Numbered from the stretch's first letter, positions 60,112-64,000 are shown. The stretch: 64,000 nt of DNA from an archaeon (GCA_002688265.1 NZCK01000024.1:8731-72730), one strand, 5' to 3'. Numbers and translations are program-made. Notes: generated by a model not told the origin, from the sequence alone.

Positions 60112-60657
60112 ATGGGAAAGATGACAATTGCAAGAGAAAATATTTTTAGAGACAAAAAGGGACAAGGAATAGGACAAGTTTTTGTGTTTATAGTAGCGGG
60201 TTTAACTTTTGCATTTGTTATGATTTTTGGATACAAAGCTATCGCAGACTTCTTGGAGAAAGGAGAAACAGTTGAGTTCTTACAATTCAAAAATGAAATC
60301 GAATCAGACATAAAACAAATAGCCTCAGAATATGGTGCAGTCAGACAAACAACATTTTATCTTCCTGCGAGATATGAAGAAGTTTGTTTTATAGATTTGG
60401 ATGCAGAGTATGATTCGAGTAGTGAACTTTGTCAAAAAAATATTATTGCGTGTGATGTCTGGGAGACTGCTTTTGAAGAGGGAGGATACACTGCGGCTGA
60501 TGAAAATGTGTTTTTGGAGCCAACAGCACCAGTTTCTATTAAAGTTTATAATATCGAACTAGACGAAGATTATTTTTGTGCAACTGTAAGCGGCGGACAA
60601 TTCACTCTGAGATTGGAAGGATTAGGCTCAAAAACATATCTCTCAGAAGCAAGCTAA
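60112..60657 (+). CDS. class III signal peptide (type IV prepilin-like) protein 1
   Basis: 181 aa. ...FRDKKG|QGIGQVFVFIVAGLTFAFVMIF has a basic leader, G|Q, then a hydrophobic helix. Confidence 0.6.
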   Translation: MGKMTIARENIFRDKKGQGIGQVFVFIVAGLTFAFVMIFGYKAIADFLEKGETVEFLQFKNEIESDIKQIASEYGAVRQTTFYLPARYEEVCFIDLDAEYDSSSELCQKNIIACDVWETAFEEGGYTAADENVFLEPTAPVSIKVYNIELDEDYFCATVSGGQFTLRLEGLGSKTYLSEAS

Positions 60658-60708
60658 ATTGAAGTTACTTGTATTGAATTTTATTTTTTGAGTTAATATA
60701 TTATAAAA

Positions 60709-61860
60709 ATGGTAGTAAGAAGAAGAGTTCGGTCTAAAACAGGGCAAATGACACTCAGTTTTAATTGGATCTTTGTTTTGATAGCTGGAACAATGATTTT
60801 ATTATTTTTTGTAGGAATTATAATTAAACAAAAATCAGTATCTGAACAAAAATTAAATTTTGATATTGTAACAGTTATGGATTCTATTTTAACAGGATCA
60901 ACAGTCTCTGAGAGGACAATTAATTTTGTAGATATAAGTGGACTTGCAGGATTTGAATTATATTTTGATTGCGAACTAGATGACGGAGGTGGTTTTGATG
61001 ACATATTTGCACAGTATGGAATTACAGGAAGTACTGCCAGCAGCGAATTACCAATGCAAGTTTTGTTCGCTCCTAAAACAATGGAAGGAACAGAAATGAT
61101 TACTTGGAGTTTGCCCTATAAAATGCCTTACAAAGTGATGGATTTATTGATGGTCACATCAACTTCAGTTAAATATTACGTTATAGGTGGAGAGAATACA
61201 GCATTTAGAACTGATTTAGAAAATGCAACAGATGGGTTCACAATAGAATTTATTTCTGATGTATCTGAAATTTCTTCACCAGGAGATTTGTACCATGTTC
61301 GAATAATTGACCTTGATGGAAGCACGTTAGTTCATAGTATGGAAATTCCTGACATATTAAAAGATGCAGATACTGGCGTAGTTACAGGAATTTTAATATC
61401 AGACACATTAAGTAGCGTAAATTATTTTGCTAAGAATGGAGATGTTTGGAATAAATTAACTTCAGCAGGATCTGTCCCGATAATTAATACAGGGTACGAA
61501 GAAAAAGATGCAGCATTATATGGTGCCTTGTTTTCATCCGATGATGAGTCATACAAATGTAATATGATGAAAGCGTTTAAACGGTACTATTTAGTGACTC
61601 AGTTGTACCAGGAGAAAGTTGAAGAGATGATCTCTTATTATGAAGAAGGGCCAGAAGAAGCTCAAGCTAATACTGATTGTGGTTTGCATTTAACAGAAGA
61701 CGCATCTAACATGGAAGACGCGCTTAATAATTTGGCAAGCACACTTACAACTTGTATAGAGCAAGGTTATGATTATTGCACAGAACTTTCAGAATATGCC
61801 AGAGAAGTGCACACTTTAAACGAAGCATTAAGTGGAGAAAATTGTGAGACATTATACTGA
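60709..61860 (+). CDS. class III signal peptide (prepilin-like) protein 2
   Basis: 383 aa. MVVRRRVRSKTG|QMTLSFNWIFVLIAGTMILLFFVG. Confidence 0.6.
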   Translation: MVVRRRVRSKTGQMTLSFNWIFVLIAGTMILLFFVGIIIKQKSVSEQKLNFDIVTVMDSILTGSTVSERTINFVDISGLAGFELYFDCELDDGGGFDDIFAQYGITGSTASSELPMQVLFAPKTMEGTEMITWSLPYKMPYKVMDLLMVTSTSVKYYVIGGENTAFRTDLENATDGFTIEFISDVSEISSPGDLYHVRIIDLDGSTLVHSMEIPDILKDADTGVVTGILISDTLSSVNYFAKNGDVWNKLTSAGSVPIINTGYEEKDAALYGALFSSDDESYKCNMMKAFKRYYLVTQLYQEKVEEMISYYEEGPEEAQANTDCGLHLTEDASNMEDALNNLASTLTTCIEQGYDYCTELSEYAREVHTLNEALSGENCETLY

Positions 61861-61889
61861 CACAATTAAAATAGGCTATTTGGGAAAAA

Positions 61890-62504
61890 ATGAAAACAAT
61901 TAATAAAAAACAGCAGCGCAAATGGGGAATTTTTCCTAAAGGCCGAAGAGCCCAAATGCAAATGATGGAAACAATAGGAGTGATCTTCATATTTTTCGTT
62001 TTAGTGCTGTTTGGATCAATATTTTACTTTAAATTCCAAGAAATTAGCTTTCAAAATCAACAAGAAGAATTGTTAGCCCAAAAAGCAATGGATATTACAC
62101 TAGTAACTTTGTTTTTACCAGAAATTCAATGCAGTCAAGGAGATGCAGAATCTGAAGATAATTGTGTTGATATGACAAAGGTGAGGGCCATGAATATGAT
62201 GATGGAAGAAAACCCCAGATATTTGACAGATTATTACTTCAATATTTTTGGTTACGCGAATATAAGTGTAAACATGGTTTACCCCATAAATTATTCTTGG
62301 ACCGTTTACGAATTTGAAAAAACAGGAATTTATGATAATGGGACAGAATACTCTGCTTGGGATCGAAAAGAAGCCACCTATTTTGTGATTACTTTAAGAG
62401 ATGGAATGCAAGGCTATGGATATGACAGTGCAGTAAGTTCATTATTCTTAGGAAATGAAATTATTTACAGTTTTGGTTACTTGAAAATTGAGGTGTTCAG
62501 TTAA
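61890..62504 (+). CDS. class III signal peptide (prepilin-like) protein 3
   Basis: 204 aa. ...FPKGRRA|QMQMMETIGVIFIFFVLVLFG. Confidence 0.55.
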   Translation: MKTINKKQQRKWGIFPKGRRAQMQMMETIGVIFIFFVLVLFGSIFYFKFQEISFQNQQEELLAQKAMDITLVTLFLPEIQCSQGDAESEDNCVDMTKVRAMNMMMEENPRYLTDYYFNIFGYANISVNMVYPINYSWTVYEFEKTGIYDNGTEYSAWDRKEATYFVITLRDGMQGYGYDSAVSSLFLGNEIIYSFGYLKIEVFS

Positions 62505-62505
62505 A

Positions 62506-63045
62506 ATGGCTAATCGCAGAGGACAAACAGAAATGATTGGCCTAGTTGTAATTGTGATAATGCTAACACTTGGAATGTTGTTCTTAGCCAAATTTGCTCT
62601 ACAGGAAGAACCAGCTAAAAAAATATTTACTAGAAAAGGTCTTGCTTATAGCACAATGAGTGCAGTTATGAAAACAGAATTAGAATGTTATGATAGCGCC
62701 ACATCAAATGATCCTGATGAACTAAAAGTTCAAGCGGATTTGCTTGAGGATTGTGCAGATGTTGTTAGATTTAATACCGCAGGAGATATTAGTTGTTATG
62801 GTTACGATAGCAGCTGTGATTTGTTAGAAGAAGAAATTTCTATTTTGTTAAATGCTACACTAGGAGAATGGCATAAAGAATATTTGTTTAGCGCTGAAGT
62901 TTTGGTTGGAACTGAGCCTTTGACAGTATTAGAGATTGATAGTGGTGGATGTGCCACTTCAACTGAGCGAGATAGTTCAGGATTATTTCCGATTTATGTG
63001 ACGAATGTAGGTTTAATTGAAAGTGTTTTGTATATCTGTGAGTAA
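62506..63045 (+). CDS. class III signal peptide (prepilin-like) protein 4
   Basis: MANRRG|QTEMIGLVVIVIMLTLGMLFLA. ATG 62506 is preferred over the track's TTG 62488, which overlaps the previous gene. Confidence 0.6.
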   Translation: MANRRGQTEMIGLVVIVIMLTLGMLFLAKFALQEEPAKKIFTRKGLAYSTMSAVMKTELECYDSATSNDPDELKVQADLLEDCADVVRFNTAGDISCYGYDSSCDLLEEEISILLNATLGEWHKEYLFSAEVLVGTEPLTVLEIDSGGCATSTERDSSGLFPIYVTNVGLIESVLYICE

Positions 63046-63155
63046 AGTTTTTATTAAATTTGAATAGGGATTCCCGTAATGTTTATATACGCTAAGAGAT
63101 TATTTATTAACTAGTATTAATAGTATAAAATTTAATATTTAACGAGGTGGATGGA

Positions 63156-63527
63156 ATGGATTTTCTAAAATCAAAGAAGGGACAAGGATTGTCTTTAACA
63201 GTTATTATTGTAGCAGCACTGGCACTAGTTGTTTTAGTGGTGTTGGTTTTGATTTTTACTGGAAGAATGTCAGTATTTAGTGAAGGTTTAGGTGAAGAAG
63301 GAACAGCAGAATTAACAACATACAAAATAGTTTATGGTGATTGTCATCCAACAAGCAGTCAAGAAAATGCGTTTTTGAATGCAATGAGTCAAGCAGCTAA
63401 TGACAAAGATAACACCCAAGAGCTGGAAACGGAAGCCAAAGATGACTTTGAAGGAGTCATTGATGACTGTCGTGCATCAGGAATTGATGAGAACGCTTGT
63501 GAATCTGATGGATGTAGTTGGAATTAA
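63156..63527 (+). CDS. small prepilin-like protein 5 (major-pilin candidate)
   Basis: MDFLKSKKG|QGLSLTVIIVAALALVVLVVLVLIF, with a Cys-containing C-terminus. ATG 63156 is preferred over GTG 63147. Confidence 0.6.
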   Translation: MDFLKSKKGQGLSLTVIIVAALALVVLVVLVLIFTGRMSVFSEGLGEEGTAELTTYKIVYGDCHPTSSQENAFLNAMSQAANDKDNTQELETEAKDDFEGVIDDCRASGIDENACESDGCSWN

Positions 63528-63530
63528 AAG

Positions 63531-63848
63531 ATGGTAATTAGTAAAAAAGCGCAACAAAACATGTTTTGGATAGTGATTGGTGCAGTAATTGCTTTGGTTG
63601 TAATGATCATACTAATAGTAATGTTTACTGGGAAGACAGGAGCATTAGAAGGGGGCCTTTTGGATTGTCAGAGTAAAGGAGGGGTCTGTGAATATACTAG
63701 TGAAGATTGTAAAAATTCCGACTCTTTTAGTAAAACTGGTGGTTACTCTGGAGAGGACGCAGGAACTGTTGCATCAGCATTTCAATGTTCTGGAGTTAGT
63801 TCAGACATAGTTTGCTGTTTCCCACCAAGCAAAGTTTCCGAAGATTAA
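63531..63848 (+). CDS. small prepilin-like protein 6 (major-pilin candidate)
   Basis: 105 aa. MVISKKA|QQNMFWIVIGAVIALVVMIILIVMF, with 6 Cys in the C-terminal half. Confidence 0.6.
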   Translation: MVISKKAQQNMFWIVIGAVIALVVMIILIVMFTGKTGALEGGLLDCQSKGGVCEYTSEDCKNSDSFSKTGGYSGEDAGTVASAFQCSGVSSDIVCCFPPSKVSED

Positions 63849-63881
63849 GAACGTTAGTAATGCTAGTTAAAGGTAAACATA

Positions 63882-64000
63882 ATGTTGTCAACAAAAAAAG
63901 GAGAGGTCAGCGCTTCACCTGCCCTCTTAGTTACAATCTTGCTGGCAATTATACTTTTTTTACTTTTTGTTTTCGGCTTAAGGTCAAAAATAGGTGGATT
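63882..64000 (+). CDS. prepilin-like protein 7 (5' part, runs off the window)
   Basis: Manual translation gives MLSTKKGEVSASPALLVTILLAIILFLLFVFGL... Confidence 0.45.
   Translation, partial: MLSTKKGEVSASPALLVTILLAIILFLLFVFGLRSKIGG

Follow-up and report, generated by a model that had tools for sequence, protein, structure and literature searches.

The archaeal genome examined here (1.07 Mb in 32 contigs, 34% guanine plus cytosine (G+C), 84.7% complete) comes from a member of the Woesearchaeota / Nanoarchaeia, a DPANN group. We analyzed a 64,000-nucleotide (nt) stretch of its contig 24 (G000:C24:8731-72730, hereafter the window) and found that the window ends in the 5' half of a conserved 17-gene operon that occurs Woesearchaeota-wide. 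This operon consists of a gene for a giant surface protein followed by sixteen genes, g1 to g16. Fifteen of the sixteen families carry a class III signal, that is, a basic leader running to [K/R]-[G/A] and then a hydrophobic helix, across ~80 genomes. We favor, with moderate confidence, the reading that the proteins of the operon are structural subunits of a surface structure resembling a type IV filament, processed by the genome's lone A24 peptidase and assembled by a FlaI/TadA-like ATPase.

A conserved operon of prepilin-like genes

An initial annotation of the window, made from the sequence alone, described seven consecutive plus-strand open reading frames (ORFs) with leader, junction and helix. 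All seven are present, with the junctions it gave (Table 1). The seventh, which it had called partial, is cut by the window edge only: contig 24 is 73,255 nt long, and in the 525 nt past the window g7 is completed as an ORF of 42 amino acids (aa). It was right about the seven genes, and the cluster extends beyond them: g8 and the start of g9 follow on the same contig, and the array in relatives has sixteen genes, of which the window contains only the first half. In this genome the cluster is cut off by the contig end at window-equivalent position 64525 (window numbering carried past 64000 on the same contig), and tblastn did not find g10–g16 in this assembly, which is incomplete and broken at contig ends.

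We compared gene order across 12 long-contig regions and 80 loci with 10-kb flanks, and counted g2, the peptidase and the ATPase in 61 related genomes from 25 families of the order (hereafter relatives). Profile counts of g2 and the peptidase were also made in a phylum sample of 301 genomes that includes other orders of the class. The order giant protein, g1 to g16 is fixed in ~80 loci, a gene of ~2000–2200 aa lies directly 5' of g1 in nearly all related loci, and the sole recurrent break point of the array falls between g4 and g5. This synteny bears out the proposal, made in the initial annotation, of a dedicated surface locus that unites the giant protein with the prepilin-like genes. The largest cluster member and the one detectable most widely, g2, is single-copy in 58/61 relatives, and its profile matches 265/301 of the phylum-sampled genomes. 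The most conserved members are g1–g6, at 43–49% mean pairwise identity (49% for g1, with 76–78 orthologues, and 48% for g3), with g7–g16 at 21–39%. Orthologues of g7 and g8, 40–60 aa in length, occupy the same position in relatives.

The genes are closely packed, with intergenic gaps of 1–110 nt; 1 nt separates the g3 stop from the g4 start, and g6 starts 3 nt after the g5 stop. The giant protein has an N-terminal Sec-type signal, CarboxypepD_reg beta-sandwich repeats (Pfam matches PF13620, PF13715 and PF08308), a C-terminal transmembrane (TM) helix and a cytoplasmic tail. The mature parts of g1–g6 are acidic and have even numbers of Cys (4, 6, 2, 6, 4 and 6), which fits extracellular disulfide-bonded proteins.

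Each of g1–g6 starts with a short basic leader, a [G/A]↓Q junction (the arrow marks the putative cleavage site) and a hydrophobic helix of ~20 residues. We scored the signal positions from alignment columns without imposing a motif. Throughout g1–g8, at least 95% of sequences have G/A at position -1 and 78–100% have K/R at position -2. The sole family of the sixteen to lack the KK[G/A] plus helix motif is g9, whose N-terminus is a plain anchor. Gln at +1, which had been taken as a feature of the whole cluster, is indeed found in g1–g6 of the window but is conserved across relatives only in g2–g5 (78/79 for g2, 71/72 for g3, 70/70 for g4 and 48/56 for g5). The g1 family has G/A at -1 in 73/76 sequences and mostly Met or Leu at +1 (Met in 40/76, Gln in only 5/76); +1 is a mixture of S/Q/D in g6, mostly Met in g8 and mostly Ala in g16. 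Conserved acidic residues follow the junction in several families: Glu at +3 in 70/70 g4 sequences, Glu at +6 in g3 and Glu at +2 in 29/36 g8 sequences. In g5, -1 is Gly in 56/56 and the helix is nearly invariant among 55 sequences. At -2 the g2 protein encoded here carries Thr (SKTG↓Q; leader at 60709-60750), where 62/79 sequences of the family have K/R.

This run of genes is not a chance event. A loose rule requiring [KR][GA] and a hydrophobic helix within the first 40 aa is satisfied by 43/1175 crude ORF calls genome-wide, a motif rate of only 3.7%, so that a run of eight such genes would arise by chance with a probability on the order of 1e-6 or less; five of the eight consecutive cluster genes satisfy the rule, and inspection by eye finds the junction in every one of the eight. 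No paralogy was detected by hhalign among the heads of all sixteen families (probability <8%). What the families have in common is the signal plus the helix only, as in minor-pilin sets. A signal for processing and packing would be expected to constrain unrelated proteins at fixed positions in this way; a positive-inside flank would not need such a constraint.

Structure predictions give the two members that we modeled a pilin-like plan. For g4, AlphaFold2 (71 sequences; mean predicted local distance difference test (pLDDT) score 89.4) predicted a helix at residues 5–32, a break, a helix at 36–55 and then an alpha/beta head made of a hairpin, two helices and a C-terminal five-stranded antiparallel sheet. 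For g5 (55 sequences; pLDDT 81), it predicted a continuous helix at 14–59 (46 residues) and a small three-helix head. Both models thus have the pilin 'lollipop' plan of a ~50-residue N-terminal helix carrying a head. The suggestion that the small g5 protein could be the major subunit is reasonable: its helix is nearly invariant, as noted above, and some relatives carry tandem duplications of small pilin-like genes at the g5/g6 position. Major pilin and archaellin genes are often tandemly duplicated. We regard g5 as the best candidate for the abundant subunit.

Candidate processing and assembly proteins

The initial annotation found no assembly genes in the window, and we agree: the window has no A24 peptidase and no T2SSF platform gene, and its sole T2SSE ATPase is a 385-aa PilT-like protein. 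It had also made its reading depend on there being a prepilin peptidase somewhere in the genome. There is one, a single A24 peptidase on contig 30, with both catalytic Asp motifs (D22 and GGAD83) and ~8 hydrophobic segments. It is present in 55/61 relatives and in 292/301 phylum-sampled genomes. Two forms of the archaeal enzyme have been distinguished, with 5 TM segments (PibD/FlaK) or 9 (EppA) (PMC4858521). Against NCBIfam models our peptidase scores 44 bits with FlaK (cut-off 330) and 19 bits with EppA (NF053826; cut-off 450).

The genome encodes two T2SSE ATPases, the PilT-like protein and a 774-aa protein on contig 7. The latter is closest to FlaI/TadA models (the best NCBIfam model is FlaI at 124 bits, below its cut-off) and is matched weakly by models of the BasE-type bindosome ATPase; it is present in 60/61 relatives at 48–87% identity. 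The platform family PF00482 (T2SSF) had no match in the genome at E <= 0.001. Two genes from the contig-7 ATPase lies a highly conserved 746-aa polytopic protein that is a platform candidate, matching T2SSF weakly (E = 5 only, in a Pfam scan at E <= 10); a few JGI records label its orthologues 'TadB'.

In one genome from another family (G056), the ATPase lies ~9 kb from g2, the sole case of proximity between motor and cluster that we saw. There, the genes for the FlaI/TadA-like ATPase and for a 549-aa protein that belongs to no known family sit just upstream of the giant gene in the same orientation, with one opposite-strand gene between them. The platform is not encoded by the gene that separates the ATPase from g2, and such proximity was seen in this one genome only.

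The PilT-like gene, 48 kb from the cluster, had been put forward as the only related motor. It is of the PilT/PilU type (TIGR01420, 238 bits), and all four same-genus genomes and 59/60 relatives lack it; because it is strain-specific, we rejected it as the motor of the cluster. Retraction-type ATPases are unusual in archaea, and the gene is probably a recent acquisition. Four genes downstream of it, none with a Pfam match, may form a strain-specific module with it. By eye, their 231-aa and 275-aa products resemble paralogues, and the 329-aa product combines a TM helix at its N-terminus with an ectodomain that is acidic and rich in Thr. Elsewhere in the window, positions 20001–22000 have 26% G+C against ~34% in the remainder.

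Other proteins of the genome also have class III-like N-termini. A second set (204–844 aa), outside the cluster, shares a near-identical start, [KR][GA]↓Q[IV]T[IV]F[IM]ILG, and its members are likely to be further substrates of the A24 peptidase. Two proteins of ~195 aa, one of them a 192-aa pilin-like protein (KRG↓SLNLS) whose gene adjoins that of the peptidase, are alternative candidates for the cognate pilins of the ATPase.

Table 1. Genes of the cluster and other features discussed in the text. Positions without a contig or locus prefix are window coordinates; C, contig of the genome analyzed; L, locus in a related genome.
Feature	Coordinates	Strand	Product and remarks
Giant surface protein	53588..60040	+	2150 aa, Cys-rich; ORF call and Pfam; first gene of the conserved cluster
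g1	60112..60657	+	181 aa; leader MGKMTIARENIFRDKKG↓QGIGQVFVFIVAGLTFAFVMIFG; junction DKKG↓QGIG; 4 mature Cys
g2	60709..61860	+	383 aa; leader MVVRRRVRSKTG↓QMTLSFNWIFVLIAGTMILLFFVG; junction SKTG↓QMTL; 6 mature Cys
g3	61890..62504	+	204 aa; leader ...PKGRRA↓QMQMMETIGVIFIFFVLVLFG; junction GRRA↓QMQM; 2 mature Cys
g4	62506..63045	+	179 aa from ATG (alternative start TTG at 62488, 185 aa); leader MANRRG↓QTEMIGLVVIVIMLTLGMLFLA; junction NRRG↓QTEM; 6 mature Cys
g5	63156..63527	+	123 aa (alternative start GTG at 63147, 126 aa); leader MDFLKSKKG↓QGLSLTVIIVAALALVVLVVLV; junction SKKG↓QGLS; 4 conserved Cys
g6	63531..63848	+	105 aa; leader MVISKKA↓QQNMFWIVIGAVIALVVMIILIVMF; junction SKKA↓QQNM; 6 mature Cys
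g7	63882..64000, continuing for 10 nt past the window	+	complete 42-aa helix-only protein; MLSTKKG↓EVSASPALLVTILLAIILFLLFVFG...; junction TKKG↓EVSA
g8	window-equivalent 64038-64190	+	50 aa; DKKA↓EMEM (KKA↓EMEMSLIV...); beyond the window, same contig
g9	window-equivalent 64193-64525	+	first 111 codons to contig end; MGVQTKLVFYLIP...; without KKG motif
A24 prepilin peptidase	C30:18275-19150	-	291 aa; PF01478, E = 1e-10
FlaI/TadA-like ATPase	C7:50292-52616	-	774 aa; PF00437
PilT-like ATPase	11515-12672	-	385 aa
Four genes downstream of the PilT-like ATPase	8286-8981, 9099-9926, 10004-10993, 11057-11428	-	no Pfam match
Second class III-like set	C1:7131-9257; C10:3465-5477; C24:1-2533; C27:1844-2587, 6079-7386; C31:12947-13711, 43022-43636; C14:7281-8483		likely peptidase substrates
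Two ~195-aa proteins	C30:17447-18025 (-), C31:9983-10573 (+)		N-termini of KRG↓SLNLSIEAIVIVVIAF- and KKA↓SINLAMSTIVMVIIGM-type
Long g13 orthologues with Amidase_2 or VWA	L040:16385-17581; L045:17382-18926		relatives
Locus with ATPase near the cluster	L114, G056:C42 5630-16555		another family

A proposed filament-like structure and its alternatives

In the arrangement we favor, the precursors would enter the membrane with their short basic leaders on the cytoplasmic side, and the single A24 aspartic peptidase would cut after KK[G/A], exposing Gln at +1 (g2–g5) or another residue. The FlaI/TadA-like ATPase of contig 7, together with the polytopic platform candidate, would pull the hydrophobic helices at the N-termini out of the membrane and stack them into a helical core. 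The bulk subunits would be the small proteins whose helices are most conserved: g5, and perhaps also g7 and g8, which are helix only. The proteins with larger and mutually unrelated heads (g1–g4, g6 and g10–g16) may be low-copy tip, base or adaptor subunits, and the giant protein an associated adhesin or anchor.

Several results weigh against this arrangement. To our knowledge, 15 different subunits far exceeds any characterized type IV filament. Foldseek searches of the PDB with the g4 and g5 models returned no solved pilin, pseudopilin or archaellin (best E = 0.028, to ribosomal S3, for g4 and 2.3 for g5), sequence-profile searches of the PDB with the same two proteins gave TM-helix noise only, and none of the seven window proteins matched a Pfam or NCBIfam model above noise. 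A FlaFind-type pattern, [KRDE][GA][ALIFQMVED][ILMVTAS]x3, used in place of the actual program, matches only g7 and fails on g1–g6 and g8, because their positions +2 to +4 hold G, Q or E and not hydrophobic residues. Across the 80 loci, blastp found no homologue of the ATPase, platform candidate, peptidase or PilT-like protein <10 kb from the cluster, and the 746-aa platform candidate has no PDB profile match to add to its T2SSF score. Genomes without a g2 match still have the peptidase, and the co-occurrence of peptidase, ATPase and cluster is uninformative because all three are near-universal. Finally, the 192-aa protein and the 'KKG↓QITIFIILG' family could be the real substrates of the ATPase.

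The strongest alternative, which we nonetheless consider unlikely, is a non-filamentous, membrane-anchored envelope complex in which class III-like N-termini, cleaved or not, tether 15 ectodomains to form a fixed-stoichiometry surface or pseudo-periplasmic scaffold around the giant protein, comparable to the sugar-binding proteins of the Sulfolobus bindosome. Sixteen single-copy, unrelated families in a rigid order do have the look of a stoichiometric complex, not of a set of major and minor pilins, and near-universal, housekeeping-like conservation without linkage to an ATPase would suit such a complex as well. An anchor would, however, have no need of a strict K-K-[G/A] or of Gln at +1 and Glu at +3, which point to a processed and packed N-terminus. 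The heads match no pilin fold and g9 has a plain N-terminal anchor without KKG, as a tethered scaffold might predict; yet g7 and g8 (42–50 aa) are helix only and have no ectodomain to present, and the ~50-residue N-terminal helices modeled for g4 and g5 fit the pilin design. The bindosome (Bas) itself offers a precedent for class III-signal proteins that do not form classical pilus fibers, and the weak match of the BasE-type models to the contig-7 ATPase speaks for the comparison. Unlike the bindosome, the window proteins have no solute-binding domain in Pfam or NCBIfam scans, and the gene set and order are unrelated. Bindosome-type class III-signal proteins depend on PibD and an ATPase of the type IV filament (T4F) kind, and a bindosome-like assembly would still be a T4F-related machine.

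It is improbable that the cluster encodes ordinary Sec-dependent proteins, whether with type II signal anchors or as TM proteins, in which KKG would be a positive-inside flank, no A24 processing would take place and the likeness to prepilins would be superficial. The lack of any pilin match by hidden Markov model or structure would be expected of such proteins, as would the failure of the FlaFind-type pattern on most members and the Thr at -2 of g2, and some ordinary signal peptides of this genome likewise carry loose KKG plus helix motifs. But a flank needs neither G/A at a single fixed column, as kept by at least 95% of sequences in 15 unrelated families, nor an invariant Gln at +1 and Glu at +3. 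Moreover, a peptidase with both Asp motifs is kept in 292/301 reduced genomes that have few other candidate substrates.

We searched for PF04021 (DUF361, Class_IIIsignal), the family with which the initial annotation had linked the Gln at +1. It had no match in the seven window proteins at E <= 10, among 55 g5 orthologues at E <= 0.01 (a full Pfam scan of these was also empty) or, in a six-frame search of the genome, inside the cluster at E <= 1; PF07790 (Pilin_N, euryarchaeal PilA-type pilins) likewise had no match in the window proteins or the cluster. The cluster would work like a class III-signal pilin set but, as PF04021 and the other family models fail, is not a DUF361/EppA member. A bona fide methanogen Epd system (archaeal T4F 'system 1') with a dedicated EppA is thus very improbable: Gln at +1 in g2–g5, small helix-only members that recall the Epd major pilin without a globular domain and the assignment of system-1-type pilins to 1990 DPANN genomes (PMC13705601) all recommend it, but, besides the absence of PF04021, the peptidase scores far under both cut-offs, the pilin genes do not share a locus with an ATPase gene and a pair of platform genes, and the best model for the ATPase is FlaI/TadA-like and not Epd-specific.

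Relation to known systems and to DPANN biology

The favored reading, a T4F-like structure, finds partial parallels in several characterized systems. Like the Epd pili of Methanococcus maripaludis, the cluster combines class III signals and Gln at +1 with many different pilin-like proteins, some of them tiny or helix-only, and Epd pilin genes also lie partly away from the ATPase/platform locus (PMC13705601, PMC4858521). Unlike Epd, it has no PF04021 match, its genome lacks an EppA-type (9-TM, arCOG02300) peptidase, an enzyme usually encoded at the pilin locus, and its 15 novel-headed families form one rigid operon led by a giant protein, with no ATPase, platform or peptidase at the locus.

The organization also recalls bacterial sets of minor pilins and pseudopilins (FimU-PilVWXE with PilY1; GspH-K), in which several co-transcribed, unrelated proteins share an N-terminal helix only. 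As with FimU-PilVWXE and PilY1, a gene for a large non-pilin adhesin lies alongside, here putatively that of the giant protein, and, as in minor pilins, an acidic residue stands near the mature N-terminus (Glu at +3 in g4, +2 in g8). The leader, however, is of the archaeal type, KK[G/A]↓Q, and not G↓F/M-xxx-E with N-methylation; the cluster has three times as many members, and its proteins match no solved pilin or pseudopilin in sequence or fold. For the purely helical head predicted for g5, a precedent is ComGC, the small major pilin of the Gram-positive competence pilus (PMC7212644). ComGC is bacterial and has another signal motif, and Foldseek finds no similarity between it and g5, so the likeness is an analogy of design only.

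We found no description of this operon in the literature searched, and the ~140 public homologues of g5 are all labeled 'hypothetical protein', with no Pfam domain. In DPANN archaea, ATPase and platform genes lie close together and the pilins are scattered, with unclear function (PMC13705601, 2026); the cognate pilins of a nanoarchaeal ATPase clade 'could not be identified' (PMC4858521, 2016). The near-universal, ordered operon, in which 15 unannotated pilin-like families accompany a giant adhesin-like protein, offers a concrete candidate for this missing DPANN structural kit, and the part in the window, g1–g6, comprises its most conserved members. The operon also defines ~16 protein families that are now labeled only 'hypothetical protein' and that can serve as targets for proteomics, labeling in cryo-electron tomography and cleavage assays.

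The g13 family varies in a way that may bear on function. A minority of its orthologues are long (>300 aa; 6/49), and among the three long forms scanned, one has a C-terminal VWA domain and another a C-terminal N-acetylmuramoyl-L-alanine amidase domain (Amidase_2). Such forms would fit a role, in some lineages, in adhering to bacterial partners or attacking them.

Woesearchaeota are abundant, uncultivated and probably host-dependent archaea. A bolder proposal, which we offer tentatively and hold to be possible but doubtful, is that the operon specifies a lineage-defining surface organelle of fixed composition in the Woesearchaeota and related Nanoarchaeia. It would be a heteromeric stalk or pseudopilus of ~15 subunits carrying the giant Cys-rich protein, with wall-cutting or VWA modules fused to g13 in some lineages, and would constitute the 'missing' substrate set of the orphan DPANN ATPase/platform pair. 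If this proposal is true, the operon would be the host-contact apparatus of these episymbionts.

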